From positions 310,001 to 374,000 of the forward strand of contig NW_027191409.1 in assembly GCF_041146345.1 (NCBI RefSeq): DNA of 64,000 bases, in the 5' to 3' direction. Shown here piece by piece: positions 1 to 48,874 of the stretch. This DNA comes from Neodothiora populina (Eukaryota). A program made the position numbers and the translations under genes. The notes beneath the pieces are model-generated. The model searched no databases. It worked only from the letters and a program-made list of their open reading frames with translations, and was not told where the DNA came from. Position 1 is the first letter of the stretch. Each line of letters begins with the position of its first letter.

Positions 1-433
1 TGCTCATCCTTTGAGTACCGGCGCAGAGCAGTTTTCGAGACAAACAGCCTGACTTGTGTATTGGTTCGACGGGCATCCAGGAGATCGATAATGTTCACAT
101 TGACCTCGTTTAATTCCTATAGCTAGACATAAGATGGAGGTCCTGACATTGTTTCGTCAGGACTCTTGCCTTCTTGCATTGCGTGATCGATTTTGGGACA
201 GGTCGTATGCTGACTTCGCGACACAGGTTTTGCCAGCGCTCTAGCTTGGTGAATTCAACACCATAGTGATGCTGGAACTCTAGATTTAGACAAGCATTTC
301 GCCTTTTATGACATGCCTTCGAGTTCAACTTCCAACCTCTTTGTCGACCTAGTCTTTCAAACTCCTCGAGTATAGGGGCATTGGCATTATGTATGAAATC
401 TGGAAATTGGCTAAAATAGCTGCTGGCGGTCAT
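1..433 (-). CDS. Conserved-type fungal hypothetical protein, 3' end runs off the window
   Basis: ATG at 433. Exon 1 reads ...KLERWQNLCREVSIRPVPKSITQCKK. An inferred GC-AG intron at 169-117 joins it in frame to ELNEVNVNIIDLLDARRT..., which stays open to position 1. Confidence 0.65.
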
Positions 434-1197
434 ATTTCAGGAGGGGTCGGGAAACATGATGATACCTGGCTTTGGGGGAGTTTCACGACTTATTTGATTC
501 ATTTGCAGGTACTCAAGATTATCTGGTCAGCAGAATTTGTTGGGTCTTCATGCATCGTTCTGGCTTGTTGACTGATAAGGACCTGTTTTGATGCCGTGGC
601 TCGCATAACTACCTAGATCTACGAAGGCTTGTACACCGAACATTCGACGCACATCTCACCTGTCTCAATGTAAAGAATATCGGCGGCTAATTGTTAGTGT
701 CTCGCTACCAGCGCGGTGTCAACCATAGGGTGTATCCTCCCTTGAGAGTCTGTCAGGCGAGTCCGGATGTGTTTGATTATCTGATTATGCACCAATGACG
801 CAGCGGATATTACGTGGCTCCAGCAAACGCATATCCCAGCCTGAATAGGTTGCTACCTAGAACTGATAGAGCTGAGCCACGACTGGCTGGTGATCAAATT
901 GGTCCAACAAGTAGGGTAGTCAATCTGTCAACCTTACAAATCACTGAGCTCGTGTCTCCTTCGAAACTCTATGTCCCACCTTTGATTAGCACAGATTTTG
1001 ATACCTGACTAATTGGTTGATAGAACACCATCCTCCTGGCAAGAATATCGTGGCCTCGACATTGCTACAAGGATTCTTCTGGGACATGATATGTCTCTGT
1101 ATTGTTCCTCGCTATCTCCTAAACCCATAGAAAAACCCTGGGACGAGGTTCGATAGGATTAGCTAGTCAAGTTACAACTGTTGTTCAGGTGGTTCAT

Positions 1198-2704
1198 TCA
1201 AGACGAACTTTTCGCCACAGTCTCCTTCCTGCGCCCCGACAACATCCTCTGGATTCCGATAGGTGCTTTACTCTGCTTCTGAAATTCCTCCGCAACACGT
1301 GTCAATTGTGACTTTACAAGAACAATCCGAGGGAAAACGGGTTTCTCTGAATCTGTCTCAACTTTGATGATTCCTGGGAACAGGGAAAGCACTACTGCTT
1401 TGTCGGAATCTTCTGTTTCAATTGCTCGCATGTCATCGGTATTGCGCAACTCCGCTGACGCAGAGGAACCAAAAGCTGTCCATATCTTTGACTCGGCCGC
1501 GGGAGATCCAGCTTCAAACATAACAGCACTTCTTTGCACTTCTCGCCAGAGTTCCACGACGTTGCCTGTGAGTAATTTTATGTCGGTCATGTACTCCTTC
1601 CACTTATCTTGCACTATGAGCAGGTGCGCGAACGCGTGAAATTCCTTTTCGGCAGTCATTTGCGCTGCAAGCCCTTGTTTATCTTGACTATCAGGGGCGC
1701 TGAATCGTAGCAGCAATGCACGGCAGAGTGATGCAGCTTTGTCGTCTTCGAAGGCTTGATCAACAAGCAATTTAGAAAGGTTAGTATTCCCTCCGATAAC
1801 GTAAGTTGACAATAGAATATGCTTAGAGAGCAATTTACTCAGGATAGCGAGAGCGATAGCCATTCTCATATCCTTCGCGGCATCAGAGTTTGAGGCCGGA
1901 ACAGGGGGGATGGGGTCGTCTATGTGCTTTTGTGCTTCAGCAACCCAATCACTCTGTTTCTGAGTCATGTCAGCTTCATTGACCATACTCTTGCTTTGAA
2001 AAGTTATTCACATGCCTCCAGAACATTGGGCAATACATTGACTCGGAAATATTTGTTTGCAAAGGTGACAGCATCTTGCCACACTGACTCTAAATGTCTA
2101 TGACTTTCGAAAATCAGTAAACTGGTAGGTTTGGGGCTCTTAGCGTGACTCACAGCGATTGGGTATCGATATTGATAAGTTTCGACCCATATGATTGCCA
2201 TTCCTGAAGCTCTTGCATAGTATCTTGCAGCCTCATAGTCACATCCCTACTTTCACTTCCTTTCGCGAACAAGTCCTTTTCCAATTTCGCAGACTTGTTT
2301 TCCTCTTGCTCCAAGGCTTCACTCGTACTGGCCAGTCTCTGGTTGAGATCTTGGATTTCCTTCTGGAGGTCGATTTCTCTCTGGTTCTGGGTGTCCAGCT
2401 TTTTGGTGGAGTTGGTGACTTCTTCCTGCAACCTTTTCTGTATCGCTTGCAATTTTGCCTTCTCTCCCTCCACCTCTTTACAGTGATTTGTGTGGGAACG
2501 GAGAAGGCGATCATAACCTATGTCCTTGCTCTCGCATTGCTTGCTCATTACATTTAGTCGATGCTGGGTTTCTACCAGCTCTTTCGCCGTAGTCTCGGCC
2601 TCTGTGTAGAACGGCATGTGCTTGCTGCAGACTGCCATAGCGTCATACAGCTTACGGAAGGCACCATTTGGATCACTTGGGATACCATTGGTGGCTGTGC
2701 TCAT
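1198..2704 (-). CDS. Hypothetical coiled-coil protein
   Basis: ORFs 2150-2827 (heptad-rich, E/K/Q/L), 2004-2201 and 1198-1986 join in frame via introns 2153-2098 (GTGAGT..TAG) and 2015-1960 (GCATGT..GCTGAC..CAG). An alternative GT donor exists at 2036. Start could be 2704 or 2716. Confidence 0.7.
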
Positions 2705-4021
2705 CTTGCCAGACATGTTTAGTAAGGAAATCGAGGATGATATAACAAAATGTAATATCGTTAGAAGCAAAGAGACGAGATTCACAGCCTCGATGTAAAT
2801 ATATATATATGTTGGTCGGGAATACATTCATAACCGACGCGGCTGATCTTGACGGACTCACACACCCTCAAGTTCGTATGCTGATACACATCAACCCACC
2901 TCCTTCAATAGCATCTGGTGATGTTGCGAACATGAGGCTTGCCAGCACGACAAAATGGCGTTTTTCATATCAAGAAATGCAAGCCTGACTCGAACATGAG
3001 CAATCAAGTCTCGGATCCATGGGTCTGTTGGCCTCAACAATACTGCTCAGGCAGGCTGAATGCGTACCCTTGGACGATGATTTCATGCAGCGAATGACCA
3101 TGAAATTCACGGTATCGTACCTTTTCCGTCAAGGCTGCTCTGAGATACTTCTGGACCTTGATAGACATACGCTGCGCAGTACCTCATCATTTTGACAGCG
3201 AAGCAATGCAACTCATGCACGCTACGATCAAAATGTGTTGGAGCAGGTAGCCGATCATGGTGAGCTTGAACAAGTAGATCAATTGTAGCCTGTCTTTGGT
3301 GGGGTTCACACATGAGGACTGGTCGACTCGAATTCGAAGATCTCTCTGGAGCACCCATCGTATTGGAGCATCGGACCAGGAAGCTCAGTAATTATGCTCA
3401 CACCAGTATACTTGGGCAGGAATTCTCAACGAGTCTCGCCTCGTTATGCCATGAAGTGATGTGCAGCGTGTCTGCAGATACGCCTTCTGCATAGCATTGG
3501 AGCTCGCATGTCACTGCCGTCGAATCAGGCCTCGTCGTTATCTTCAAGTATGGATTAATGGTTCCATAGATTTCTAGTCACCACTTATATATGATACATA
3601 CAGCAAAGTCAGTCGCATAGCCTCAACGCTGTCTCGAGACCTCGAAGTCCTATATCTCGGATCTAATTGATTTTACATGTTCAGTGCGGGGTATCGGTAT
3701 CACTTATCCGACCCTCTCTCGCTAGATCATAAATGGAGATGTGGAGTCGCCATCTTCACCTATCATCCTCCGCTACGTGGTGGTCCACACGCCTCAGTCA
3801 ATCGATGGACCATCAGCACCACCAAAAGTACTTTAAGGTAGCAAGTCAACAACGCAACATATTGTCTACAACCAGCCACATTGTGAGCAGGCGTTTTTTT
3901 ACAGACCTGTATCGCACTTTCCTCCTAGGTGAGCTGACGTCCCGCAGAAGCTTCCGTCTGTCAGCGGGTCCACAATATTGCCTGTCCACGTATCACATGT
4001 CTTCACATTTTCAATATTCGC

Positions 4022-5803
4022 TTAATTGATGCGCATCCATAACTCTTCGCAATTCTCGGCAGAGAAGTGATCGACCCAGGGGAAGACTTTGAGTGTCTTC
4101 TCAATGGCCTCCTTCCGCTCCAATCCGAGGGCTTTTACTACCTGCCTCAGCTTGGTCTCGAAGAAATCGACTCCATGAAACGGAGGCATCGGTTCGAAGA
4201 TTTGGTTTTTGCACTCGATCCTTGATAGGCTCCACGCCACAAAGAGGACCCAGAGTAGACATTCCAGCTTAGTTTGAGACTCGGTTGTCCACCATTCGAT
4301 CAAGTCCGGCCATCTGCGAAGGCCTTTGTGAAGTCGATTCAAACCACGTTCGGACACTCGTTTCATTAGCGGACCATAGTTGACCTTCACTCGTACCTGC
4401 TCAGGGATGAACTCTGGGAACAATCAGCATTTGTAACGTGACCTGCCCAATCAACTGGAACTCACCAGGCACGCATGTCCATGCATAGAGTCTCATAGTC
4501 AACAGAATTGCCTGCGCTGCCGAGAAAGGGTGTTTCGTTCCTTCAGCCACTAAGACGCAGAGACGATATATGTACTGATAGTGCAGGTCTTGAATCGTCC
4601 ACAGCGCATCCTTGTGAGGTTCTACAACGTGTTCCCTGCTCGTGTAGGCGAGACCTGCCATGTGGAGCCCATGCATTTGGGTTTTCGCCTCATCCCCGGT
4701 CAAAGCCGCTGGCATCATGGCCATGGTTTTCTCTGTGCTATCATCCGCTTCTCTGAGTAGGCATGTGGACAGAAGAGATTGGGGATCTCTTCGCTCAGGG
4801 CAGTAAGTAAGGAAAGGAGCTTGAAGCAAGGTTGAAGCCAAGCGGATATCAGTCCAAACTACACAACGCCTTTGGATGTCTCGGAAGCTTGAAACCCCTA
4901 AATACTGGAATAGCTTTTGGACCGCTCTCATGTGGGTATTGGCGGCAACATGTTCACCTTCCGCTAGATGTATCCTCACCAGGCAAGATATCAGCATCAT
5001 AAGCGAGTCGTCCACGCCTTCTGGATCTGTCCACCAAGGGATTAGTCCAACCGACCACGTACTGTAATCGAAGCAAAAGGGATCAAGGCTCATGAGGGCT
5101 TGTATGTACCTGAAAGACGTTCGCGGATATAACGCGTCATTCGTATTTCTTGAGAAGGCAACATGGACCTATCGTAGCGGCCTGTCACCTTGACTCGCCT
5201 CGCATAGCCAATACACAACACGGTGAAGAAGATCCCTTCGTCGGTCATAGCAGCATTCCAGAGGTCTTGCGTATAAATCTTGTCATATATCTGCAGCCAT
5301 GCTACACCAAGCTCCCAATTACTAGGATCAAGATCACGACACCGATACCAACTCAGAAGTTCATTCTGGTCAGAGGTAGCATGTTCAATGACTTTCCCTC
5401 GTATGGGTGGCATGTCTTGTTGATTCGTTTGCTGCGAGGTTGTCCAACCACTGATCGATGGATCAGATGAAGGACGAACTTCCACTGTCGCTGCTACATC
5501 CTTCCCTTGCGGGGCTCTGACAGATCGTTCGATCATGGCGTCTGCTTCGCGATCTTCAGACGACGAGGGTGTTGGGGGACCAGAGAAATATTGATCGCTT
5601 CCCTCGATCTGCCCATCTACCTGACTCTGTGGTGCAACATGCTTCCGATGCCGTCTTGGATCCTTCCCTTGTTGGCGTCGGAAATAGTCTCTCATTACAT
5701 GCTTTCGGACTGCTCTGAGGGACCGCTTCGTTTCCTTGTCTGCTTGCGGGTCGCATGTCACGAATAAGAAGTCCGGTGGGTTTTGTGGAACACTGGGCTC
5801 CAT
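4022..5803 (-). CDS. Putative fungal-specific transcription-factor-like protein lacking a Zn2Cys6 cluster
   Basis: N-terminal FLFV...RAVRKHVMRDY motif typical of this class. Three ORFs join via introns 5109-5027 and 4465-4414 (canonical GT-AG). Confidence 0.6.
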
Positions 5804-6982
5804 GGTGGTGGCGTTGCAGATCTTGATAATCGTACCCGCAACCAACGGACGCTATACTCTGGTCGTTCAACAAGTGAATTAGATCACACTTTACAGTGGG
5901 TTTCTTTGCGAGACTCGCTTCTCCAGATTTTGCTCTGTTTTTGGTCTTATCCAGCTGAACAATGAACTGAGGTGGAGGTTCGCACGGTCCGGACCAAGAA
6001 AAAGAGGTTCCAGTCCAAGTTCATGAGCTCAACCAACACAAAGCGGAATCATATATATGGCCTGCAGATGATGGTACTGCTTGAGTACTGTGCTATGCTG
6101 CACTCAATGGCCCCCGTCCCATACACTTAGATGATGGTCCCCGACGGCCCCGAACTGTCAAATCCTTCCATCAACACATGGGGGATCCTTGTCTTATCGA
6201 CACCTAATGTAAGTGCGTGACTCGACTTTTGACTACGATCGATCTCCATGGATCACAAATACTGGGTTATTGTCTCCGGTTCTACACGATTCGGCCAATG
6301 ACCATGCAAACCACTATCCGCGGTATCGAGTTTTTCGAGGCCGCTACGGCTTAGATCGAACACCTTTCCAAATTCTACTTGTTCTAGGCCAGTAGGTCTA
6401 CCCTACAATACAAACGCAGAGGCAAGATTGACCCCACCTTCTTCAATCGTTTGCAATTCGCGTATATTGCTGAAGTAAGCGTCACCGCGAAAGCCAGGGT
6501 TGTGAGAAGCACATAGATGCTTCCACCTCGCAGCTATTCACTACTGACTGATGGGATTAGAAAGCCAAGGTCGCAAGCGACGTTGCAGATTAATAAAAGA
6601 TGGCGGTGAGTGGCGCTACTACACTAAATGGCAAGATGGCTGCGCAAGCGTAATAGCATATATCGAAGGAAGGATTGCGGATTCGCCCTAGCCTGGTTGG
6701 AGCGTGGACTCCGTCACGGGTGCTGTGTCTAAGGTACGTCTTGTTTCTTCTTTTACCACCCCCAATAATACTCCCTAACCATATCAGCCTGGAGCCCCAT
6801 CTTTGAGCATCCTTGGCTATCCGCTGTCATCTATCTTTGGGATGAAGCCACGTGCTACTGTAGTCTCGATATTTACTCCGGTCTGGCGAATCAGAGTCGT
6901 CTCGCGGGACGGAGAAGGCGCGTAGGGCTACTGTACAAGTACGATCCCGGATTGGGAAGTCTGTACGTCGCATCCCAAACCG

Positions 6983-7006
6983 GTCAGTCAGTCAGTCAGT
7001 CAGTCA
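6983..7006. repeat. (GTCA)6 microsatellite
   Basis: Six perfect GTCA units read directly. Confidence 0.95.
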
Positions 7007-7918
7007 GACTTCAGAACCCTTTCTTGCATAGACGTTGTCTCGGTGATTGCCTGTGTTCTTTCCGATAGTAGCGTGTACCTACTGTGTCTTCTTTCGCGCG
7101 TAACGATAAATTCGATTCCATCCGACACCGCGCGTACATGCTACTGTGCAGGGCATCGCTTGGGAACATAATTCGCTAAATCGCTGCCTACCTTATTTAC
7201 ATCACCAGCCATAGGTCGTGCCACCTATAAGGGTTTATTCTCATTGACTCATCTCGTATATGCTACCATCCTTCGAACCAGCGCGTACTCGACGATCAAC
7301 TCCTTCTCGTCTCCCCATGCTTTCCCCCTCGAACTACACTATGTATACGCTAAGCACGAATAATTGGACGAGAGATGTAGATAGATAGGTGGAATTAGAG
7401 TCCATATTCAGAGACCGAGCCGCGCAGAGAGGACACGTGGGGTGGCTGCAGTAGTTCATGCATCTCGCCTTATTGAGAAGAAAGGGACATTTTAATATTG
7501 TCAAAGAATGCAATATAATGGCAAGCACAGGACATTGGTTCTCGAATGATGGGCCCACGTTTTACGCTCGCGTGCCTTACAGGGCTGTAGGGCTGTATTT
7601 GTCAGGTAATGCGCAATGACTATTGGTATCCTTTGTAATCCTCTTTCTCTGCGTGATGTTCTCCAGAGTGAGGGTAGTAATGTTACATCATTGACTTGAA
7701 GGGAGAGGTCACACGGAGATTTGAAATCATGATGGTTGCGGTGGCGATGCCCTGCATTATCGCCGGGTATAATATATGGAGGCAGACGCTATTTTTGGCC
7801 TCACTCAGACACCCTATTAAGTAATCGAAACGAGAGACTCTCAGTCCCAGACCGGCTGGGTTAGGTACTTTCGCGATCTGTTACTCCCTTCACGCAGAGT
7901 TCTCATAACATCGGCTCC

Positions 7919-8911
7919 TCAGCATTTGTCGGGGCCCTTCGTCGTCGCCTCCCTCAGTTCTTCGATAAAGGGTCCCGTCACCGCACCCTTGACGGTCAGA
8001 CTTACCAAACCCTTGAGTTCTTGCAAGGGCTCCAAGACGGTCTGCACCTCTGACGGGCCACGGGTCTTAGGCTCGCCGGCTTTGATCATGTTCCTTTTCT
8101 CTGCGTCTAGGATGTCGTTCCCGTTCAGTAGCTTGACGTCGAGCCACTTCACTCCTTGCTCGGCTGCGTGCACTTCTGCTTGCTCTTTGTCTTGATTTGC
8201 GGATGCATCTCTGAGTGCTTTGACGAGCTTAGCTACTTGACCTTTCAGGCCGTGAGTCAGACCTTTGCCACCGACGTTATACTTGATCTGGCCAGTGTAT
8301 GAATCGACGTGATCGACCGTGACGGAGAGACGCTTGATCAATCTCAAATACTTCGGAGGCACGAGTTCGAGTAACTCAAAAGTCCTGTTAGGACTCAGAC
8401 CATTCGGTAGAGACCAGCGGAAGCGGAATGTGATGCTATCGTAAGTGACGAAAATGACAAAGGTGCTTTCTCCATACATGAGTTCGGCGCACTCATCGTG
8501 GAACTGTCGGCAGACAGCCAGCAGAGATGTCTGGCCGCGTCGCCAGATGATGCTTTCTTTGGTCGGACCGGGTGGGGGTCCTGCGAGCATCCGCTGGAAC
8601 AGGTCAGGTGTTAGATTTGTATGGGTTGGTGGAACCCGCTTCTGGGTTATTGCTTGGAGCAGATGACGTTTCTCTCTTTGCACAGCAGTGCATGGTAGGA
8701 GATATGAGTATACTTGTTGTCGGAGCTCATACGGCAATCTAACGAAGGGAAATGCTTCTGGCCTGCGAGAAGGTCCGTTCAGTGGGCTTTTCTGCGACAC
8801 CCGTGCTGCTCGAGCAGCTAATATTGACGAGGTCGACACTTCCTCTGACACCTTGGAGGAGGTCTCCTCGGGTTGGAGGTAGTAGTCCCTGCAGTTGTGA
8901 AGACCAGTCAT
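7919..8911 (-). CDS. Hypothetical protein with F-box-like motif
   Basis: Long ORF with FPFVRLPYELRQQVYSYLL and LLAVCRQFHDECAELMYGE motifs. First ATG (MTGLH) at 8911. Confidence 0.75.
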   Translation of the reverse strand: MTGLHNCRDYYLQPEETSSKVSEEVSTSSILAARAARVSQKSPLNGPSRRPEAFPFVRLPYELRQQVYSYLLPCTAVQREKRHLLQAITQKRVPPTHTNLTPDLFQRMLAGPPPGPTKESIIWRRGQTSLLAVCRQFHDECAELMYGESTFVIFVTYDSITFRFRWSLPNGLSPNRTFELLELVPPKYLRLIKRLSVTVDHVDSYTGQIKYNVGGKGLTHGLKGQVAKLVKALRDASANQDKEQAEVHAAEQGVKWLDVKLLNGNDILDAEKRNMIKAGEPKTRGPSEVQTVLEPLQELKGLVSLTVKGAVTGPFIEELREATTKGPDKC

Positions 8912-9484
8912 TTTGGGGTATGTGAATGACAGGATGGCGCGATTCAAGTCACACAGATGGTGCCTGGATCGGAGATAATATACAAAGTGCGGCGGTTCCA
9001 AATGAAGGTTTGGGCAACAGCGGAGTTGGATGGGGAACCTCGTCTGTGCTTTGCAGCTGTACCTGCCCTGTATCTTGGTCTTGGCACATAGTCACTCCTG
9101 CTAAGGTAAGGTAAGCTACGCTACTGTACCTTATCATCCCGACAGCTGGTATCACTTGGCCTCCTTTTCTTGTTTGTATACACACATCACCATGTTAACA
9201 GCACACTGTCGCCCGAGTGCTTGTGCCTTCGCGACTCGTTGTTCTTTCAATCGTGTGTCATGTTTCTACGGTAATCTTACAGCAGGGGCTGCGTCCCTCT
9301 GACGTTCTGTTCCTGGTGGAGACTGATTAATTCCCGCGCATATGCTATATGCAATTGACGAAAGCCCAAGTTTAATCAATACCAATAGAGCACTCGCGTT
9401 CTCTTCTGCTTACCCTCAATACCACAGTCATTCAGAGAGCGGGAAGCTCAGCACAATCTTCGACCCAGCATTGGTCTTGCTGCA

Positions 9485-10570
9485 ATGCCTACCTGCATAG
9501 AAGACCTCGCCAACGAGACACTAGAGCAGGTGTTCCTGTCTGTATCTAGTGTATCGGCTGCACTCGACCTATCAGCTACTTGCCATCGCTTGCGTCGGGT
9601 GTACCTGTCTTCGAGCAAGCTCTCGATCCTCGAGCAAGCGGCTGAGAAGGAATACGGTCCTATCAATGAGATCATTCAGCTTGTTACGCATAACGCATCC
9701 CAGCCAGCACACATTCGTCGCCACGTGCCGCTATCTGACGCACTTCTACACTCCATCGTCCGAGCTGGACACGTGGCTGTCAAATGGGAGGACAGCTATG
9801 TCTTCAAGAAGTGGAAAATGGACTTCGAGAACAGACGAACTCTGACCGATGAAGAACGTTTCGACCTTCGGAAGGCCGTGTATCGTCTCTGGCTCTTTTC
9901 TCGAGCCTTCCATAACTCTCGCTACTCACGTCTCCATCGACTCACGCCTTCGGCAACGTACGAGCGAGCTGCCCTGCTGCACAACTTCAATACCTTCGAT
10001 CTCGCGCAGATGCTGGATGTTCATGACATCCTACGCAGCACTGTTAGCCGGAACATCTGTCCGAGCAACGGCATCGTGCGCACAAAGTTTCAGAAGCGTT
10101 CCCCCCAAACAAACTACCAGCTCTTGTTCAGTCCACTTTATACCACTGCACAGGCTCCGACATGGCTCGAATCGGACTACTATCACAGCAATCTCAACGG
10201 TGGTGACAGACGGTCATATACAAAGTACACGCCAAGCCGTAACCACGAGCCAGGTGGTGAAGGTTGGGGCGATGAGATTATGCACTACTATGTCATTGAA
10301 GACATGCTGAAGCTTGATCCGGAGCAGATGCTGTGGCTCAAGGAGAACGCGCCGTTCAAGCATCAAGTCGAGACATATGTCAAGGAGCTAGGCGACTGGT
10401 TTGACAACAACGGCGAAACATTCGTCCAAACGCTGCAGCTCGTACTACAGCAAAGGGGTGAAGACTGGGAAGACTTCCGAACCTCGATTGCAGATGGAGA
10501 ATCGGGCGTGGCGCTCACGAAACGAAGAGACAGCGTTGTGTACAACAAGGAAGAGCGAGAAAGACAGTAA
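9485..10570 (+). CDS. F-box domain protein
   Basis: 361-aa intronless ORF with N-terminal IEDLANETLEQVFLSV...LSATCHRLRRV F-box-like motif. Confidence 0.8.
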   Translation: MPTCIEDLANETLEQVFLSVSSVSAALDLSATCHRLRRVYLSSSKLSILEQAAEKEYGPINEIIQLVTHNASQPAHIRRHVPLSDALLHSIVRAGHVAVKWEDSYVFKKWKMDFENRRTLTDEERFDLRKAVYRLWLFSRAFHNSRYSRLHRLTPSATYERAALLHNFNTFDLAQMLDVHDILRSTVSRNICPSNGIVRTKFQKRSPQTNYQLLFSPLYTTAQAPTWLESDYYHSNLNGGDRRSYTKYTPSRNHEPGGEGWGDEIMHYYVIEDMLKLDPEQMLWLKENAPFKHQVETYVKELGDWFDNNGETFVQTLQLVLQQRGEDWEDFRTSIADGESGVALTKRRDSVVYNKEERERQ

Positions 10571-10770
10571 GAAGGACGCCGTATGCTTGCTGGCTTGACA
10601 TCCGACCACTAACGGTCGGCCTCGGGACCCTACCCCGGATTTGCGTCGAAATCTCTTACGCGAAAAAAGTCACTAGCAGCATGTCTCTCCGTCGATGAAC
10701 CGAGAAGAAAAAGAAGAAGCATGTTGTTCCCGAAAAAAAGGCGCAGTTTGAAGAAAGATAAGCAAAAACT

Positions 10771-10866
10771 TGACCGCGCCAGGGGTCGAACCTGGAATCT
10801 CTTGATACCGCTCAATCGTAATTGTTTGAATCGTAGTCAAGCGCCTTGCCATTGGGCCACGCGGCC
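10771..10866 (-). tRNA. tRNA-Arg(ACG) with 24-nt intron
   Basis: Minus strand reads GGCCGCGTGGCCCAATGGCAAGGCGCTTGACTACGA-[24 nt]-ATCAAGAGATTCCAGGTTCGACCCCTGGCGCGGTCA. Full cloverleaf, A and B boxes, and a T5 Pol III terminator just downstream. Confidence 0.95.
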
Positions 10867-11534
10867 TGTTTGATGTAGAGACGCACATCTCTTGCTTCAT
10901 TTGTACTTTTGTCACGAAGGTCGTGAGGACAGATGTTGGTCTTCTGGTGATGTTGCAGAAGGGAAACAAGGAGATGAACTTGGACAGTATAAGTATGGCT
11001 CGGGTCAAGATGCTACTGCAGACACTACTGTGCGACCATCTGAGCCATCACAACTCGCAGTGTCATGGTTCATAGTGTTTCGGCTAAACGCGAACAGCTG
11101 AAAGGGAAGAAAATAGCTCGAGCATATATAATCCCAAAAGCTCATATTTCGAATACACGAATGTCTACTCCAGCGCTACCCATCCCATTGCTCCGAGTGT
11201 TAGAATCTTTCTGTCCAGTTCTAACTGATATAATGCACTGTAATATTCCAAGAAACAGTGACTCAAGTAAAACACGGATCTGCATTATAAAGTCATGCTG
11301 GGCAGGATATAAGAATCAATCCAAGCAAGGGATCAAGCGACAGGGGCGGGTCGGGGGAGGAGCCAAGGCCGACACAATGACGTCGAGTTGCGCGTGTCCT
11401 GAATCTCTGCCTCAGGTTGCAACAACGATATTGTTGTCCGCTCAAGGACAAGTCGCAATCCCAACACATGACTCTAACAACAAAGACCTCGACGCCTACA
11501 CCCACCGAAGGAGACGCGGCAAAGACCAAACACG

Positions 11535-12656
11535 ATGCCATCAAAAAGAGGCGGCCGCACGCGCGCACCGCAACACAACCAGCACCAGCAGCACCATCAC
11601 AACCACCATGTCCAACAAACCCTTCAATCCGACTACGACACAGACGTAGCCAACATGACCGACACCAACGCGCCTGTGCAAGCCCAAAGCCCTCTGCCTG
11701 TGCCCGCACGCACAAACGAAGACCTGAACCTGCTCGTCCTGAAACGGCACTGCCCCTCGGTCGTCGACATCTTAACAGTGGCCAACTTCGCCGTGGTCTA
11801 CACCTTCTCGCCCTCATCCAGCCAATGGGAGAAATGCGGCATCGAAGGCACGTTATTCGTCTGCCGCCTCGAGTCCGAGTTCCCGGCGGGCGCAGAAACC
11901 CCCGTCGAGCGCTACAACGTCATCGTGCTGAACCGCAAGGGGCTGGATAATTTCTCGACGGACGTGACGAGCAGCGAGGCGGTGCAGATCACAGACGAGT
12001 ATATCATCGTTGACGACGGCGAGGGCTTGGTGTACGGGCTTTGGATCTTCTCTGAGCCGCCGCCGAGTTCGACTGCTGAGACGAGGCAGAGGACGGCGGA
12101 TATGATTCTGGAGTGTGCGGTCAGGGCCGAGAAGAGTAGGGAGGTTGCTGAGGCTGAGATCAAGGCTGAGCTTGCTGCGAGAGATGTCGCTGCTGCTGCT
12201 TCTGCAGACGCTTATCCTGGTTCTGCTGAGCACCAAAAGCAGCAGTTGCAGCAAGACCCCCACGCCTCCTTCGCTCTAGGCCAGTCACAACAACACATCG
12301 AGAACGGCTACGGCAATGGAAACGGACAAGTGGTGCCCCAAGGCCGACAAGTGGGCATCGAAGAACTGTTCGGACAGCAACACCAACACCAACAACACCC
12401 GAACCAACCATTTCCCTACCCCCGGCAGCATCAGCGGCAGCAGCAGCAGTATCAACAACATCAACATTTCCCGCCTCAATACCAACATCAACAAAACCTA
12501 CTCTCGCAGTTCAACAGTGGTGGTGGACCGCCGCCGCCGAATACCGAAAACAACAATCGCAACAACGGCTTCCACTCGGCAGAGCAGTATAACAACCATA
12601 TGATGGCGCAGCAACAAGCGCAGCAACAACAATTTCGGCATTTGCAGCATCTTCAT

Positions 12657-12687
<31 letters not shown>

Positions 12688-12803
12688 TGCATCATCAACA
12701 ACAATTACAGCAGCATCAACGACAACAACAGCAGCAGCAACAGCAACAGAGAGACGTCATTGGGGACTTGTTCAGGAATGCGAAACAGGGGTATACTGCT
12801 TGA
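11535..12803 (+). CDS. DCP1: mRNA decapping enzyme subunit Dcp1 (EVH1 domain) with Q-rich tail
   Basis: RTNEDLNLLVLKRH...WEKCGIEGTLFV...IVLNRKGLDNF...VYGLWIF, the Dcp1 EVH1 signature. Confidence 0.92.
12657..12686 (+). repeat. (CAG)10 polyglutamine-coding repeat in DCP1
   Basis: Ten consecutive CAG codons read directly. Confidence 0.95.
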
Positions 12804-13064
12804 AGCGAACCAATGAGGGCCTGAGAAAGAGAAGACAGGAAGGGTCGATTGATGGATGCACCATGGACGTCGATTCTACTGTTACCTCTTACTCCGATTC
12901 AACCTTCTCCTACTTTCTACTACTAAAACCTCGCCCCTTACCCTGACAATCCCTTCCGTTCCTGGCATCTACACCCACTATATACCATCCGACCAAGAGC
13001 TTTCTAGCAATTATCAACATCAATATCAACAGAAAGTCAACAAGGAACAGGAAAAACCCAAACT

Positions 13065-16000: not shown

Positions 16001-16795
16001 GCGGTGTTGGCTTGTGGCAACGTCGTCGGGCTATCATTTCCGGTCACTAGCAGCGACGCTCTTCCGAGAAGACGTTCGGCCCAGATGCGAAACTCGGTAG
16101 CAGAGGCGACGTTGGCCGGTGGGTTTTGGACAGCTTTGAGCGCGGACTGGTAGGATTGAGCGGCTGCCGAGTCGTCACCTTCTTTTTCGTAGGCAATACC
16201 AAGAAAGTAGCTGTTCTTCAGGATAGCCAGTCTTGTGTTAGGTGAAATGTCGAGCGGGTTCTTGCTATGCTGTCTGAGCTGTTGCCAGACATCGTCGTGC
16301 AGGCCACCGGTGATGGTCTTCCATTCCCCCCTTAGAAAGTAAATCTCATGTAAACAAACGTTGGCCTGGAAAGCATCCTCGAAGTGGGTCTTCTCCTGGT
16401 CCACTGCTTGGATGAGGTTCGGGGTGACATCCAGCAGTGCGGAGAATTGAGAAGAAGTAGAAGACGCGGTAGAGGGTCGATCTCTGGCAGCATTTGCCAC
16501 CGCAGCTTCAGAGTTGGCGGTGAGCGTGAGGCCTGGGGGGGAAGAGAGATGGTTCTTAGTTGCGTGGCAGTAGAGACGGTGGTGTGATAGATGTCAACAT
16601 ACACTTGCGATGCGGCGCGTGTTTGTCGACTTTGCGTGTGAGTTCGGGGATTTCTCCCCATTTGGCATTCAGTCGGGCATTGTCGAGCAGGCCGATGTAG
16701 CGCAGAGCCTTCTCGCTCTCGATTACCTGTGGTCTGGGTCAGTTGTGTCGCAAAGGCAAGTGCGAGGATAACATGTGGCAGGCACTTGCGCTCAT
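13065..16795 (-). CDS. YPP1: TPR-repeat protein Ypp1/TTC7 (filamentation protein Rhf1-like)
   Basis: Five exons with introns 16789-16727 (GC-AG), 16602-16533, 15549-15501 and 13724-13659. Spliced N-terminus MSVIESEKALRYIGLLDNAR; motifs ILYRAATKTFHST and GSGWDDSETWLALARAHE...LWWVVELEDSRPVRPW. Confidence 0.8.
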
Positions 16796-17400
16796 TGCTG
16801 GGGCTGACACCTCTATACAGCGTTTATGTCACTGTAGTGTGTCCCTGAAAGTCCCATAACCTCCTGGGGGTTGGTGAGTTATCCTAGGATACGCTGTAGT
16901 GGACTTTTACAGTGTGCGGTAGAGACGCGGGGATGCTTCTATACAGGTGTTTTCTACCGCAAAGATACTGTAGTCTGCAGTGGACTGGGTACGGTACGGT
17001 AATTAGATCTAGAAGGTACAGTACCTTATTGCAGCATCTGCTCCACCCCGTAATCTTCTCCGTATCTATAACTGTCTCTGCAGCTGCCTGTCCCTTGTGC
17101 TTCACCCTTGTGAGTTTAAATGACATCTTGGCTTGTGATTGCACTTGCCCTTGCACTTGCACTTGCCCTCGGCGCAGTCGAGTCGGGGCCAAGTGAGTGA
17201 CGCCGCTACGAGTACTTGTTGCTCGCTTGTTCTTTCTGTTTTTATGCCTCGCCTGTACCTTGATGCGTGCGGCTCTTGTTGCGTCAATGGTCCGCCTCGT
17301 CATCCGTAAAAAGTTTCATCTCCGTCAATATCACATGAAATTTGTATGTTCACCATAGCTTGATTTTATCTAATTCTCCAAACCATACGACCCGCATAGA

Positions 17401-34278: not shown

Positions 34279-37072
34279 CTATTCGTTCGGGGCTTCTCGA
34301 GCCTTCCTCCCCTCCCGCTCCTCCCACCTCGTCACCGCGTCCCTGAACAACTGCCGCGCAGGAACCCTACTGCCTAGCCTAGCGCAGAGCAAGAACGCGC
34401 CCGACAGCTTGCGATGCAGACTGTACGTCTCCTCTGGCGGGGGCGCCAGTCTCTCGCGCACCATGAGGCCGATCTTTTCTCTCACGCGATCGGTGATGGT
34501 TTGGTTATCAAAGTCGTAGGTTTCGTTGTCTGGCGCTGTTGTTGCTTGTGCGACTGTTGACGATGACGAAGAAGAGGGGGCTTTGTCGTCGTCGGCGGCC
34601 ACGGCGTCGTAGAAGGGCTCGGCGAGCGTCAGGATCGAGTTGACGTGTGCGTCCAGCATGGCGGTGCTTTCCGCGCCGGTCAGGTATCCGAGCTCGATGG
34701 AGAGGGTTTGGCAGGCTTTGCGGTCGCGTGTCGAGGCGGCGATAAGGAGCCGGATGTAGGGGTCTACGAACTGCGAGGGGGAAGTCGCGGCTTGCGCCGA
34801 AGTCTAGGAGTTCGATTCTGCGGTCGTCGCTTGATGAGGGAGAGCCGCGGTTGTAGAGGAAGTTGGTCCAGTTGGGATCCGTCTGCATGAATCTCCAGTC
34901 CATGAGTTCGCGCAGGCAGAGACGCAGGATTTGCGTGCCTATCCAGTCACGCTCTTCTTGCGAGAGATCTTTGAGCTTCGTCACTGCTGTGCCGGACATG
35001 AACTCTGCGGTCAGGACTTGCGGTCCACATGCTTCCTTTATGACTGCTGGGACACGGAAGACGGCGTTGTCTTCGGGGGATGAAGTGATGAGGTCGGAAA
35101 ATCGTGATGCGGCTGCTGCTTCGCGTTCGTAGTCGCATTCCCAGCCCAACTCGATCTGGGCGTTTGCGATGGTCTTGTCGAGGTACAGTCCCTTGGGAAG
35201 CAGGCGTGACGCGGTCAGCAGAAGAGACAGATTGTTGAGATCCGACACGATGCTGTCTCTGACGCCGGGATACTGGATCTTGACAGCTACGGTTTGACCC
35301 GTTGATGCGAGTGTTGCGCGGTGCACTTGGCCGATCGAGGCGGCTGCTAGAGGGACGTCGTCGAATGACGAGAAAAGATCCTTCCAGTCAGCACCGAGGT
35401 TTGATGCTAGTACCTTGTTGCGTTGCGAAGGCGGCATGTAGTCGGCGCTGTCTTGCACTCGCTGGAGTACAGCGTGAATGGGTGGCGGAAGCATCTTGCT
35501 GTCCTGGAACGACATCATCTGACCGAGCTTCAGAGCAGCGCCACGCATACGTGACAGCTTCGCAACCAACCGTTCCATGTTTGCCGGGCTTAGCATCAGC
35601 GAGCCTGACGACTCGCCGCCTGTTACTCGGCGAAAGCTTTCTCCGACAGCGCCAAAGGCCATACTCGTTGCTAGGCCGCCGTACTGCCAAAGACGGCCGA
35701 AACGAGAGGATGGGACGCGGGACTCGCGAAGCTGGTATGGAGCGCTGGAGACGTCTGCTGCGGCGGATGCCTGGGCAGGCTCTTGTGGCGTTATAGCATC
35801 TCGTGCGAGCTCTTCAGCTAATTCGCGAGTCTCCTGCTCCGCATCCTTCTTCTGCGACTCGGATGCGATGGCTTCTGATGCGGCCTCGACTGGCTCTGAT
35901 GCTTCATCTGCACTCGTGCGTACGTTGAATGTGTCCTGATCCCGGCCTTGGGTCAAAGCACTTTCTTCAACGGGACCACGTCTGGCGGCTCTCATCTTCA
36001 TCTCATAAGCCCCCCTTTTGTCATCTCTACCATTCCTCAACAATGCTGCAACGCGGGGGCTATGAAAGACATCGGTGTTGATGCCTTCTGGTGTTTCGGT
36101 CTGATCCGGAACAGCTTCCTGGGATCGAATCGGGGTGGAGTCAGAGTGAGCCTTCGAGGAGTAGTACACGTCTTGGTTTAGCTGGCTGTCTTGTACGTGT
36201 TCGTCACCACCCTGAGCATCTTCTTCATACTTTGGAATCTTCATACGTGGTAACGAAGAAAACTCGGGAGAAGTGACCGTCGGTCGCTCGCTGTATGTAT
36301 CTTGACCCGCGGTAGGTGTCTGTTCTTCCGATCCTGATACGGAGGGGATCTGAAACTCGGACAGTCTCTGAGCTTCCACGTTGTGCTGAGACGTGTGTCG
36401 AGAGGCCGAAGTCGCACGTCGACGACCTGGATCTGCATCCATTCGCGCTGCACCCTCAAGTGAAATTGTTCCATCAGGAAGAGTAGATCGAGCAGGTCTT
36501 TCCTGCGCAATATTCAGATCCTGATGTTGCTGCAGCGGATCTTGCTGAGGCTCAGAGACAGGCCTCCGTGAATATGTATCCGTTCCCTGCTCCTCTTCTC
36601 GACCTCCAATTGCACTGCCTGCCGGCGTTATAGTTCCATCGGGCAATGGGTTCCGGTCTGCCTTCCTTTGCAACACTTCGAGTCCATCCTTGGGGACATC
36701 GTCGGCTGTAGTATTCGTTGCCGACCTCTGGTTATAGAAATCCTTATTCAAGCCGTGTTCGCCACTGCCTCTCTGAGCTGCATCCATCCCGCTCACAGTC
36801 TCTCTCCTGGGAATAGAAGGCCCATCATCCTCGGTGGGAGACTGGTAACCTCTCGAATACGAGGGGCCTTTTTCATTGACTCTCTTCGAAAGCGCATACG
36901 CGGCTTTGGCAGTCACAGTGACGCGATCTGTTTGGTTCTTCACCGCGCGTGCGAGACTCGACGTCTGAGTGAAAACATCCCATTGCTGCGATCGAATGGC
37001 AAAATGTTGCTTTGCTATCGATCGGGACGCACCGAATAGCTTTGCTGCGTCTAGGAGCCTTCTGCCCGCCAT
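34279..37072 (-). CDS. COQ8: Atypical kinase Coq8/ABC1, mitochondrial; frameshifted in this sequence
   Basis: RGAALKLGQ, AAASIGQVH, VAVKIQYPGV, MQTDPNWTNF and LLDFGASR motifs. The C-terminal part (FVDPYIRLL...PPPEETYSLHRKLSGAFLLCARL) lies in another frame after one extra C at 34777-34781. Confidence 0.9.
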
Positions 37073-37694
37073 TTGCCGTGGATTCTTGGTTCGTGTCTAG
37101 TCTTCCCCTGGGCGAGATTGCTATAGCTTATTATGCATCCTTATGAGACACACTATTCACTGCGGAGATGAATCTACTGCAAATCGTGGTGACTGTGGTT
37201 ATGATCCAAAGGCAACTTTAATTAGTTCATGTTTTGATGCCGTGACTGAAGGATCGCTGACGTCGTCGACGACCATCCGAGCTTCAACTACCACGTCGGG
37301 TACTTCGATGCGCCGAAGGACTCATCGATAGACTCATCGTTCATCAAACGAGCCCTCAATACTTACCGCAAAGGACAGTAGGGTATTCAAGGGAGAGTAT
37401 ATCGACTAGATAGATACTCGCCAATGTTAGCCCGATCTTAGCTGATCATAGCATGTTGGATCTACATACTAAAGCCGAGTGGAAAGTCAGGTACGGTAGG
37501 TGATGAATCTAGAGTGCCTACTATCAATCTCAAGAGGAGCTCTGCTTCACTCTCTTTATCAACAAATAGAAACATTCCCTTCCCGCCACGAACCAACATC
37601 TGCTGAACATCTGCTCTGTGTAAACCATCCCGCCCTAGTCAATTTATCCCTCGCTCTATCAGCCGAATCTTGAGAAGTAAATACACAAAAGAAC

Positions 37695-39670: not shown

Positions 39671-40055
39671 CTAGATGCCGATACGGGTCTTGCGCCAATG
39701 TCTCCTCTTGGCGTTGTACCTGTAGTTATGGACCTGTCAGCCATCTTGTTCGGAGTGGGTGGGCTGTCCTCGACTGTGTCTGTCTCGATCTGATTGAAAT
39801 GGCGCTCTTGGTCGCTTCTTTGCATCTTTCTGTCTCTCTCTCTCGCTCGCCACAGCGCCGTGATCATTCGGGACGGTCGTACCTGATGGTGTTGCCAGTT
39901 CTGAGGCGGATCCACTGAGGGATGGGGCGGTTCTGCTTCTGGGCCTTGGCCAGCTTCTGCTTGGTGCGGAAGGTCTTGTGAGACTGTAGAAACACTGCGT
40001 TAGACAACTATCATCATGCCAGGCGGGAGCGTGTTCGATAATAACATACAGGCAT
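39671..40055 (-). CDS. RPL39: 60S ribosomal protein L39 (eL39)
   Basis: Spliced product [51 protein letters not shown]. Introns 40049-39984 and 39882-39720. Missed by the ORF track. Confidence 0.97.
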
Positions 40056-42973: not shown

Positions 42974-44894
42974 ATGGGAAACAACCCGTCATCCACGGCC
43001 AAAGGGCCAGAGAGGGCGGGGGCCCAGTCGCATTCCCCAGCGGGCACATTGCAGAGAGAAAGAACAGAGCGACGACGACACCACCAGCAGCACACTGAGC
43101 ATTACTATGGCGAGAGAGGCGGCGCTCCCTCGTCTAATGCTGCCTCTGCCTCTGCTGCTCTCAGCACCGGACAAGGCCCACGACAGCGTGAGAGTCTCGG
43201 GGCGCTGTCGTCTTCGGCCAAGGCACAGGCGGCGCCTCCCTCGCTGACATCCACCGTGGCTCATCCCACCCATACTGTTCATTCTTCCACTCAGGCTCAA
43301 GCTCAAGCACATGCATCTGCGACCACTTCTTCATCACCGGCCGCGGCTCGTGCCGTTCCTATCGCTGCACCTTCATCACAATCTCGTCGCCGTTCCGCGA
43401 CGCGCCCCGCGGCCGCAGCCGCATCACCTTCTGATCAGCCCGATCTGTCTGATCTCTCGCCCCGATCACACATGATGGGCGCCGAGCACTCGCAGCCAGG
43501 AGAGAGAGAGCACAAGAACAGCGATCAGCAGCACCTCAGGCGCCCATCTCCCCCACCAGAACCTCGACTGTCGCCTGCCTCCCAACCGGTCGATGTGCCG
43601 ATGAGTAATGCCCAAGCACGCTCTGCTCGCCCACCACCCCTCGATGCCGGTGCCATGTTCCCTGACACATATCATCTTCCACCGAGCAGTTACTCTCGCC
43701 CCCCACGCTTGCCTCTTCCTATCGAGGAGGAGGTCCACACTCCTGGCTCTCCCATCGCTTCCCCAGTCGATCTCGAGAACGAAGCCGACGACATTCCCAG
43801 ACGAGGCAGTGTGGTCAGCAGTACGGTGGATGACGACGAGGAGCCCGACAACTTCGAGGGCTACTCGACCGAGCACGCGGGTCCGAAGGTGCCAACTATA
43901 ATCGAATGGAGACCAGCAAAGCCGAATGATAGAGTCTACGTCACTGGTACCTTCACCAATTGGGAGCGCAAGTTCAGGCTCTACAAGGATGGCCCCAGCA
44001 AGCACAAGGATGCTCTGTCTGCCACCCTGCAGCTGCCCCCGGGCACTCACCATATCAAGTTCATCGTCAATGGCGACATGGTTACGAGTGAAGCCTTGCC
44101 TACCACCGTCGACTATACCAACATCCTTGTCAACTACATTGAGGTTTCGCTTGATCAAATTGCTTCGCAAGGCAATACAGAAGAATCTGCATCAACCACA
44201 CCAGTGCCTGTACCGGCCGGACCTCCTGCCCCTTCACAACCAGTCGACATCCGCCCGAGACAGACTGCTTCGTCCACCGCTCAGCCTGTCCCGCAGAATA
44301 CTGTGCCCCAGGACATTCCTCATCATCCTGCTCCATCCGCTGCGGCGCCAGCGCCAGAGCAGGACCCACGATCTCCTTCGCCCAAGTCCGCCAATCCCAA
44401 TGCCGCCCCAACGAGGCCCCCCACCACTGCCACCCTCGTCCGCCAGCCACCCAAGAACTACACATCTCAGATTCCTCAATATCTCCTCGATCTGGACACT
44501 TACATTCCATCGAGCGGCAGCAAGGAAAGCGACGCATCCCCAGCAGCCCAGGCTGCCCGCCATCGCATCGAGCGCGCAAACGCCGCCGCCGAATCACAGC
44601 CTCAACCCCCTTCACTGCCCATGTTCCTCAGCAAAAGCATTCTGAACGGCACAACTCCCATGAAAGACGATTCCTCTGTACTGATCATGCCCAATCACAC
44701 CGTACTCAACCACCTTGCCACCACGAATATCAAGCAAGGTGTTCTGGCCACTAGTGCGACTACCAGATATAAGCGAAAGGCAAGTCTGACATGCAATTGC
44801 CTTTTTCCTTCTTCTTAGATTAGTGCTAACATCTGCCTTGTTACAGTTCCTCACCACCATTATGTACAAGCCCCGCAGCGACGACGGCGATTGA
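42974..44894 (+). CDS. GAL83: SNF1/AMPK complex beta subunit (Gal83/Sip2 family)
   Basis: Glycogen-binding domain (VYVTGTFTNW, LPPGTHHIKFIVNG) and ASC domain (PNHTVLNHLAT...ATTRYKRK|FLTTIMYKP). The ASC domain is completed only by GC-AG intron 44780-44846. Confidence 0.92.
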
Positions 44895-46006: not shown

Positions 46007-46588
46007 ATGGCGGACCAAGACCAGCAACGCCAGCGACCTCCTGATCTTCCTGCTGAGAAGCCCCTCTTCACCCCTAAAGAAGAGATGATTCTCAAGCTTG
46101 TTTGGGGCTGCATGAAGACCTTTCCTGAGGTAAGTGAGCACTCGAGAAGGCTCTCTTCCCTGATCTCCAGTTTCGCTGACTTTTGACCCCTAAACAAAAA
46201 TAGATCGACATGGACAAGCTCAAGGAACGTGGTGGGTTCAATACCATGAAGACGACCTCGAACACTTGGGGTTCGATCAAGAAGAAGATCATCAACATGA
46301 ACATGGAGGGCAATGTTCCTGCTACTGCTGGTACCGCTGGTCAGTCCCTCTACACAGACGTCCTACCTTCTTCTGTCAAGTTGGCAACTAATGACATGGC
46401 CAGCTGCAGTCGACGGCGACCCAGCCACTCCCAAGAAGCCTCGCACTTCGAGCAAGAAGACGACCAAAGTCACTCCCCCGAAGCGTGATCAGGACGATAG
46501 CGGCGAGGAGGGATTCCGCATCTTGGGTCGTGGTAAGAAGGCCCGCAGGTCCATCTTCGAGGCAGACCCCTACGACGATCATGCTTGA
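46007..46588 (+). CDS. Small basic hypothetical protein (Myb-like/helix-turn-helix type)
   Basis: Spliced product MADQ...LFTPKEEMILKLVWGCMKTFPE|IDMDKLKERGGFNTMKTTSNTWGSIKKK...PATPKKPR. Introns 46130-46203 and 46340-46403. Confidence 0.65.
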
Positions 46589-47274
46589 GCTTGACTCTCG
46601 TCGAGACTCGTCGGTGGTGCCATCCATAGCTTCTACCTTTGTGGATTATCATGGTCCATCTTCGGGACGGTCAGGTTAGTTGGCATGAATTCGGACAGTG
46701 ACTGGTCTCTCCAGTAAATTAATCAATGGCTTATTGGTCTTGAACCTCAAAGTACAAGTGCCGTCCCTTCAAAGCAGTCTCGGAACGCATCCGATGGAAT
46801 ATCGTTGTAGCGAGTCAGGCTGCCTTTTCTTTCCTTCTACGGTAAAGAACATTGACCGAGACATGGATCCGTGCGTATGACATGTATGCGTCAATGTCGA
46901 GACGTCTGTGCGTGCCGTACGGGAGGGATACTTTCTACCTTACCTTGATTACCTTAGCTGACTTTGTACGGAGACAAGCACAATGACAGGGTTCCACAGG
47001 GCCTGCAGGCGTCAGAGCAGAGCAGCCAATAATAAATCGTGGCTCACGTCCACTTGTCGAGGGCGGTGAACCCTTTGTGACGGTCCCACATTGTACTGGA
47101 CTTAGCGAGATATCAGGACAAGTCAGTCTGGTCCTTAGCATTACTGACTGCTCTTGCGAGGAAGACTGTCCTGCTTCTCTCTGCTGCTGTTCATATCTCT
47201 CTCGGCAGAGAGGCCTTTCTTGTATTCGTGTCGTTTTATAAATTCTTGCATCTTCTACATCAACAAGCACCGGC

Positions 47275-48874
47275 ATGGATGACGATTTTTCAGAACGGAC
47301 TCGGTCATTTCTGTCGTGGTTTCAGAGCCGTCGATCCAATATCAGTCCTAAAATCCAACTTGCCGACCTTCGATATCGCAACTCTGGCCGTGGCGTCGGC
47401 AAGTCTTCTCTCCTATCCTCGCACGCAATATCTATACCTTACTTTCCACAAGGCGCATCGAGTCGTCGACACAATATATCGTCAAGCTAATATATTCGCA
47501 ATCACAGTTGCAACCCAAGACATTGCCCAGGATGAGCAACTCTTTTCCATCAGCCGTTCAGACATTCTCAGTGTGGAGAACTCACGGTTTGCTCATACTG
47601 AGGTCGGAAAATCAATCCTTGCCGACCTGGACGATCAGTGGACTCCGCTCATCCTCGTCATGATCTTTGAATTCCTCAGCGGGGATGATTCACAGTGGAA
47701 GCCATACTTTGACATCCTCCCCACCCACTTCAACTCCCTTATGTTCTGGTCGGATGATGAACTCGGCCAACTACAAGCCAGCGCCGTTCGACAAAAAATT
47801 GGTCGGGAGGAAGCAAATGAAATGTTTTCCGAAAAAATCATCCCTTTGGTGCGCAGAAATACTCTTGCCCTTTTCCTTGACGCCTCATCGATAAGCGATG
47901 CCGACCTCCTTTATCTCGCACACCGCATGGGCTCGACCATCATGTCCTATGCCTTCGACCTCGAGAAGGATCCATCGCAGCAAGAGGTTGACGAAGATGG
48001 CTATGCATCCGATGAGGAAGAGGCTTTTTTGCCAAAAGGCATGATCCCCTTGGCCGACATGCTGAATGCCGACGCCGGCAAGAACAACGCCCGTCTGTTC
48101 TACGAGAAGTCCGTCGTCACAATGAGAGCCTTGAAGCCCATTGCTGCCGGTGAAGAAATCTTCAACGACTATGGTCCTCTTCCACGAGCTGACCTTCTTC
48201 GTCGTTACGGCTACATCACTCAGGGTCATGCCATCTACGATGTCGTCGAGATCCCTCGGCAGCTTGTGATCGACGTCTTTCGTGCACTGGCGCCTGATCA
48301 TCCGCCTCAGACCTCACAAGAGGCGCTGGTGACTCTACACTGTCCAAAGTCTGAAATGACCGACGCTTCGCTGGAACGAAAAGTACGTCCTCGCTTCTTT
48401 GATATCATCATCCGAAACGGTTGCTAACATTAGTTCACACAGTTCGAGTATCTCGACGAATATGAAGCTCTCGATGATGGCTATGATCTCTCGCGCAGCC
48501 CTGATGAAGGACTCATCCCTGCCATGCTTCTCAGCCTTATATGGACTCTGGACCTCTCCGCTGCGGACTTTGACTCCAAGAAAGACTCCAAGCCTCGCCA
48601 GGCCTCTCTCGATCCCAAGAAAAAAGACTCCATGCGCTTCTTCGCCGTCTTATGTCACATAGTTGAGGCCCGCCTGAATCAGTACACCACGACGCTGGCA
48701 GACGATGAACAGCTTGCCCTGGTTGTCGAGCAGACAGCGCTAAATGACATTTCGGAGTACCGAAAGGCCATGGCGCTGCACGTCCGCATTGGAGAAAAGC
48801 AGATTCTTCACAGTGCTCTGCTGCAGCTAACCAATGCCCGCGATGAAGCCATCCGGAAACACGGACGGGACTGA
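47275..48874 (+). CDS. RKM4: SET-domain lysine methyltransferase (Rkm4/SETD6 family)
   Basis: ADLRYRNSGRGV|VATQDI via GC-AG intron 47399-47507; HRMGSTIMSYAFD; MIPLADMLNADA; GEEIFNDYG; LLRRYGY. Second intron 48383-48442. Confidence 0.88.

Follow-up and report, generated by a model that had tools for sequence, protein, structure and literature searches.

Predicted GC-AG introns are in excess in a 64-kb window of the Neodothiora populina genome

Introduction

In U2-type GC-AG introns the remaining donor positions lie close to CAG/GTAAGT, which offsets the mismatch with U1 at position +2, as described in PMC1557818 (here and below, a slash marks an exon-intron boundary). The shares given in the literature are 0.37-0.87% in five model species (PMC1557818), 1.009% in fungi overall (PMC7072748, Table 1) and 1.0-1.2% in ascomycetes (Rep 2006, as cited in PMC4500085). 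A supplement table of PMC7072748 lists 36 GC-AG against 17,277 GT-AG introns for Zymoseptoria, and the top fungal share in that survey is about 6.7%, in a yeast. Here we analyze GC-AG introns in a stretch of 64,000 nucleotides from the fungus Neodothiora populina (contig NW_027191409.1, positions 310,001 to 374,000 of the forward strand), hereafter the window, in which five or six of about 35 introns have a GC donor.

The closest described systems resemble this locus in part. Like GC-AG introns elsewhere, those of the window begin with GC, end with AG and have a compensating donor, which is GCAAGT at four of the six sites; they differ in their share. A lineage-restricted rise is known from cyst nematodes (Globodera, Heteroderidae), where GC-AG introns reach about 3.5%, a value termed 'uniquely high' in PMC4901422, and where the donors fit CAGG[T/C]AAGT. 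According to the same source, that rise was likewise first spotted through gene models that needed GC donors. The nematode figure is genome-wide, backed by RNA-seq and shared by sister species, whereas ours is about 15%, from one fungal window and from sequence, and distant relatives of N. populina have GT at the same introns. Switching between the GT-AG and GC-AG subtypes has been described in vertebrates (cited in PMC1557818). The same pattern is found here at all three comparable sites, with the difference that several switches lie close together, in one lineage and one 47-kb region. Finally, the GC-AG introns reported for euascomycetes by Rep et al. 2006, as PMC4500085 cites them, are of the same kind, in the same subphylum, and pose the same gene-prediction problem; their reported share is 1.0-1.2% against about 15% in the window. 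GC-AG introns, compensating donors, GT/GC switching and a lineage-wide rise in nematodes are thus already known. We found no literature report that gives a GC-AG share for Dothideomycetes, Aureobasidium or N. populina, and none of a filamentous ascomycete in which the share exceeds 10%.

Results

Six GC donors and their splice signals

GC hexamers are present at all six coordinates, and on the strands, named by an initial annotation of the window. The introns that they open and the genes concerned are as follows.

169-117, minus strand: aag/GCAAGA, 53 nt; candidate intron ending in CTATAG, in a small ascomycete-type gene cut by the window start
2015-1960, minus strand: gag/GCATGT, 56 nt; in a gene of about 468 aa without assigned function, 1198-2716
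16789-16727, minus strand: agc/GCAAGT, 63 nt; in YPP1 (TPR protein), 13065-16795, right after a first coding exon of 6 nt
24682-24591, minus strand: aag/GCAAGT, 92 nt; in a cytochrome P450 gene, 24033-26030, phase 1, inside the ExxR motif (E/VLR)
44780-44846, plus strand: aag/GCAAGT, 67 nt; in the SNF1/AMPK beta subunit gene, 42974-44894, phase 0, with 15 codons left downstream
47399-47507, plus strand: tcg/GCAAGT, 109 nt; in RKM4 (ribosomal lysine methyltransferase), 47275-48874, phase 1

All six introns carry GC at +1/+2 and end in YAG. As the initial annotation had it for most of them, clear branch points are also present: five of the six have CTGAC, CTAAC or CTAAT 10-20 nt from the 3' end. 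The exception is site 169, with CTGAC 40 nt from the 3' end and only a weak CTTAT nearer to it. The donor hexamers (GCAAGT four times, GCATGT and GCAAGA once each) fit the U2-type AG/GYAAGT, and the U12-type GCATCC occurs at none of the six sites. The introns are predicted to be ordinary U2-type GC-AG introns in which the rest of the donor is near-perfect. With position +2 left aside, agreement with the U1 consensus averages 6.2 of 8 positions for the GC donors and 5.4 for the GT donors (n = 29; one-sided P = 0.056). The signal scores of the GC donors range from 13.7 to 17.8, those of the alternatives from 2.9 to 10.6. Judged from sequence, support beyond the mere restoration of a frame is available for five of the six predicted introns, all but 169.

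Gene models at the individual sites

The initial annotation held that conserved frames are restored only with GC donors at five of the sites. Further evidence, given below, supports the GC donors at 16789, 24682, 44780 and 47399; at 169 no homologue was found, and an in-frame GT alternative exists at 163.

Two of the models can be compared with deposited N. populina proteins. RKM4 is 100% identical to AAFC00_003469 (P0160), and the model spliced with the GC donor (GTCG/GCAAGT...GCTAAT...CACAG) reproduces this protein letter by letter over 476 aa. Its intron separates GRGV from VATQDI where the SET domain begins. A comparison of the 41-aa first exon with the PDB gave a chance match only. A YPP1 exon is 99% identical to AAFC00_003458 (P0001), and the spliced model with the GC donor is letter-identical to it over 1160 aa. 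By these two matches the window comes from N. populina or from a source that cannot be told apart from it. Without the intron, YPP1 has no in-frame ATG, and a TGA lies in frame upstream of the conserved N-terminus ..SEKALRYIGLL; homologues begin MS-V.. or M..SEKA.RYI. The only convincing start, ATGAGC/GCAAGT...CTGAC...CACAG/GTA, has a signal score of 16.7, while other combinations of ATG, donor and acceptor score at most 10.7.

In the P450 gene the intron (GAAG/GCAAGT...CATAG, with four overlapping CTGAC) separates an upstream exon (..YLHYMLKE) that covers positions 288-330 of the Pfam p450 profile from a downstream exon (VLRLYP..) that covers positions 331-414. Since positions 330 and 331 are contiguous, the junction is exact and falls within ExxR, as the initial annotation had proposed. 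Pairing the donor at 24682 with the acceptor at 24591 is the one combination that makes the profile positions contiguous.

For the gene with the intron at 2015 (gag/GCATGT...GCTGAC...CTCAG) we found 250 homologues, of which 62 full-length sequences were used for a profile. The GC model scores 242.3 bits against this profile and the best GT alternatives 234.2 and 231.3 bits, so the GC model is ahead by 8-11 bits; the 234.2-bit rival also needs an implausible intron of 38 nt. In the alignment the GC model has the conserved L-E, with the customary 13 residues ahead of a conserved W. The initial annotation had called this intron probable in spite of an alternative GT donor, and the profile comparison agrees with that view.

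The long exon of the SNF1/AMPK beta gene ends at position 62 of 71 of the AMPKBI profile. It is followed by the intron AAG/GCAAGT...GCTAAC...TTACAG and by the last 15 codons, FLTTIMYKPRSDDGD and a stop. A 30-aa stretch containing this last exon had no Pfam match and no PDB match.

At site 169 the signal score is 15.7 with the GC donor and drops to 2.9 with the GT alternative at 163; the downstream frame is open to the window edge with a coding score of +5.8. A homologue search among proteins of 59-189 aa found none, and Pfam gave no family for either exon. Protein-atlas leads for exon 1 point to an ascomycete 'hypothetical protein' cluster (0.92), and for exon 2 gave nothing usable (0.85).

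Further intron-like signals lie around the start of YPP1. On the plus strand at 16,756-16,820, antisense to the YPP1 intron, aag/GCAAGT...GCTGAC...ATACAG has a signal score of 20.0; the opposite strand thus holds an equally good intron-like signal, with no coding context known there. Together with its reverse complement, GCAAGTGC makes up an inverted repeat. Upstream of YPP1, at 17,066-17,166 on the minus strand, three GCAAGT occur within 20 nt, each with an intron-like score of 14-15 in combination with downstream acceptors; they may reflect a 5'-UTR intron or chance.

Relatives carry GT donors at the same introns

Orthologous introns could be compared at three sites, 44780, 47399 and 16789. 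At all three, relatives have a GT donor at the same intron position and in the same phase. For the SNF1/AMPK beta gene, a scan of metagenome contigs provided 70 loci, 65 of them with the motif TTRY..K and, among these, 48 distinct 60-nt contexts. Directly after the motif the donor is GT in 64 of the 65 loci, one locus has no intron, and GC occurs in none. Of the 54 loci read, 48 have the last exon, FLTTIMYKP.. or YVTTI.YKP.., no more than 200 nt downstream. In RKM4, GRG[VI] is immediately followed by a phase-1 intron with a GT donor in each of the 12 distinct relatives. For YPP1 the single comparable relative, a distant orthologue in metagenome locus L005, reads ATGAAG/GTCAGT...TCTAG/CAT at the same place, again with GT.

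Because the relatives have GT at these three sites, C at +2 is derived on the N. populina line. This supports a change of GT into GC by mutation, one of the two explanations offered in the initial annotation. By position and phase, the three comparable introns are old and position-conserved. The N. populina donor is GCAAGT at all three sites, while among the relatives the donor is GTAAGT in only 1 of 64 loci at 44780 and in 0 of 12 at 47399. This fits either compensation or a situation in which only perfect donors tolerate the change. GC donors shared with the readable relatives were found at none of the three sites; these relatives are distant ones, with about 60-70% protein identity and about 1% GC introns under the same predictor. 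Since the nearest comparable relatives are that distant, the rise could be young and narrow (Neodothiora, Dothioraceae) or belong to a wider group.

The locus without an intron at the AMPK beta site is L028 (10,001-10,700), where ..RYKQK runs directly into FLTTIMYKP; the uninterrupted C-terminus indicates that the intron was lost there. The gene order AMPK beta, RKM4, EPL1 is kept in many loci (L005, L014, L019, L022, L034-L050, L053, L058 and others). L001 and L002 have ABC1, a CN-hydrolase-like gene, RPL39, KIN17 and AMPK beta as in the window, without RKM4.

The GC-AG share exceeds published and control values

Introns were counted with our own gene finder, which combines codon log-odds from long open reading frames (ORFs) with matrices for donor, branch site and acceptor and charges GC donors a penalty of 3 nats; the matrices were retrained on 26 confident introns. 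On the window it produced 26 gene models with 32 introns (28 GT, 4 GC) and recovered the deposited YPP1 protein exactly. Three introns, those at 169 and 47399 and the second one of RPL39, were added by hand. The curated census holds 35 introns, of which six are GC; leaving out site 169 gives 5 of 34. The gene finder found no further GC introns with coding support within the window. Because weakly coding genes (4022-6020, 26.2-31.9 kb and others) are unsettled, the true total is probably slightly higher, near 39. The initial annotation's count of five to six GC donors among about 39 introns therefore stands in its numerator, and its total is plausible given that our census of 35 is incomplete.

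The local share of about 15% is about ten times the usual one. At a base rate of 1.2%, the binomial probability is 3.6e-6 for 6/35 and 5.2e-5 for 5/34; at 3% it is 5.6e-4 and 3.3e-3, respectively. The likelihood ratio of a 10% over a 1.2% GC rate is about 2,700 to 22,000. As a control, the identical predictor with identical parameters was run on 15 of the 70 related loci (about 20 kb each, about 309 kb in total). It called 152 GT and 2 GC introns, so that 2 of 154 (1.3%) were GC. The window differs from these loci both with the predictor's own 4/32 (Fisher one-sided, P = 0.0086) and with the curated 6 GC and 29 GT introns (P = 0.00058). The excess over the usual share that the initial annotation had noticed is thereby confirmed for the window, against both the published value of about 1% and the control loci. 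Both control GC calls are on the minus strand of L053, at 592-463 (aag/GCACGT) and 15,211-15,157 (aag/GCATGT), and are predictor calls only.

Discussion

Proposed explanation

A genome-wide rise in the GC-AG share to 5% or more, extrapolated from about 15% in one window, is in our view the reasonably likely reading. A stronger version is more tentative and, while possible, not one we would rely on: GC donors would make up at least 10% of introns in N. populina or its kin, with many recent switches at conserved introns and either a specific change under which C at +2 is close to neutral (in the 5' end of U1 snRNA, U6, Prp8 or U1C, for example) or a strong AT-to-GC bias of mutation or fixation. 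In the main explanation, the GT donors of old introns became GC by T-to-C transition at +2 in the N. populina (Dothideales) lineage. Splicing has presumably been retained through the near-perfect pairing of the rest of the donor with U1 and U6, and good branch sites and YAG acceptors may also have helped. The cause of a rise might be a specific tolerance of C at +2 or a bias in mutation or fixation (AT-to-GC pressure, drift).

A general loosening of donor recognition would not be part of this explanation. Among the 26 confident introns, +5 is G in 26 and +6 is T in 25, and this near-invariance argues that donor recognition as a whole is not relaxed. The fit to U1 is moreover no poorer in GC than in GT donors. 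On these grounds we find no support for the initial annotation's suggestion of a generally relaxed 5' splice-site recognition; any peculiarity would, if anything, be confined to position +2 or to the mutation spectrum.

If GC donors do make up at least 10% of introns genome-wide, N. populina or its kin would surpass every fungal share on record and stand at about three times the value for cyst nematodes; among filamentous ascomycetes a share of that size would be new. A genome-wide rise would also offer a natural test case for the spliceosome's need of U at donor +2, and would show splice-site composition drifting or being pushed by mutation bias. For annotation, predictors that allow GT only would mis-model about 1 in 7 introns; here they would lose the YPP1 start, the P450 ExxR motif, the SNF1 beta C-terminus and the first exon of RKM4. 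Should the excess be a local cluster only, the yield would be a set of gene models, either corrected or confirmed, along with three clear-cut cases of a GT-to-GC switch.

Alternative explanations

Several points, given here together with the alternatives that they favor, weigh against a genome-wide rise. The GC-AG introns may be real and clustered by chance or locally in a genome with an ordinary share of about 1-3%, which we consider unlikely, though well within what deserves attention; a local cause, for example a region under strong biased gene conversion, may also produce such a cluster. On this reading the window was noticed only because many were screened. A single window picked for its odd look brings selection bias, so that the P values make the case look stronger than it is. 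With a species rate of 3% the probability is 5.6e-4 (6/35) to 6e-3 (5/39), and at base rates of 3-5% the tail probability for 6/35 rises to between 5.6e-4 and 7.3e-3. No GC donor occurs among the approximately 12 introns in the last 16 kb of the window, beyond 47.5 kb. The candidate intron at 169, for which splice signals and an open frame speak, is plausible, with less certainty than any of the other five. In vertebrates, moreover, orthologous introns are described as commonly switching between GT and GC (PMC1557818). A chance cluster is opposed by probabilities of 1e-6 to 1e-4 at base rates of 1.0-1.2%, by independent GT-to-GC changes in one lineage at three of three comparable sites, and by the 1.3% of GC introns that the same method gave in the control loci.

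The census itself could also mislead. The gene finder is home-made and was trained on the very window that it counted, and with relaxed settings it placed false in-frame introns inside continuous ORFs. The window contains 26 GC donors that score at least 14, mostly exonic, antisense or intergenic; with so many high-scoring donors lacking coding support, signals alone are insufficient to establish a GC intron. The contigs of run X1 that cover 5001-25000 are DNA-like, without splice joints. If the gene models were wrong at several sites, nearby GT donors would be used there or no intron would exist. In-frame GT alternatives do exist at 2015 and, with a difference of two residues, at 163 for site 169, and the predictor initially favored a read-through start for RKM4 and another acceptor for the P450. 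These alternatives score far lower on splice signals and, at 2015, lower against the homologue profile. In addition, intron position and phase are as in relatives at three sites, and the P450 exons are contiguous in Pfam with one pair of splice sites only. We therefore regard wrong models as very unlikely.

Sequence error, with true donors of GT and a C at +2 introduced by base-calling or polishing, is hardly credible. The assembly likely has at least one homopolymer frameshift and is then not error-free: the ABC1/COQ8 gene (34,282-37,096, minus strand) contains a one-base frame shift within about 34,760-34,860, at a run of five C near 34,790, which suggests that the assembly may hold indel errors. 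This break lies inside ..LDFGASRDFP/SQFVDPYIRLL.. (the slash here marking the break), leaves no space for an intron and falls where relatives have an unbroken LDFGASREFPETFV..; either the assembly has a homopolymer error here, or an important gene is truly frameshifted. Homopolymer indels, however, differ in type from T-to-C substitutions, and an error of the latter kind would have to strike +2 of six donors while sparing the flanking coding sequence. The two deposited proteins align cleanly with relatives. An X1 contig furthermore equals the window over 24611-24841 with 0 differences, the GC donor at 24682 included. X1 seems to come from the same species and not from the very same sequence: at position 16,871 an X1 contig has C where the window has T, the other X1 contigs being exact matches, and this mismatch indicates that the assembly was probably built from data other than X1.

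Other features of the window

The window has a G+C content of about 51% and is fungal nuclear DNA with short introns; a Pfam map places about 26 genes in it. A multi-exon gene with a weak coding signal lies at 4,022-6,020 on the minus strand, where GC-donor candidates such as 5198-5110 (gag/GCGAGT, score 14.3) stand beside GT ones, and it could hide a further GC-AG intron. RPL39 (39,674-40,055, minus strand) has a first coding exon of 6 nt (ATGCCT/GTATGT); its second intron spans about 160 nt and starts from the donor cag/GTACGA. A first coding exon of 6 nt is thus found in both YPP1 and RPL39, and the YPP1 layout is kept in L005. ARAGORN reported zero tRNA genes in the window, including neither of the two that Rfam places at 10,771-10,866 (minus strand, 96 nt) and 57,625-57,764 (plus strand, 140 nt); given these lengths, both tRNA genes probably contain introns.

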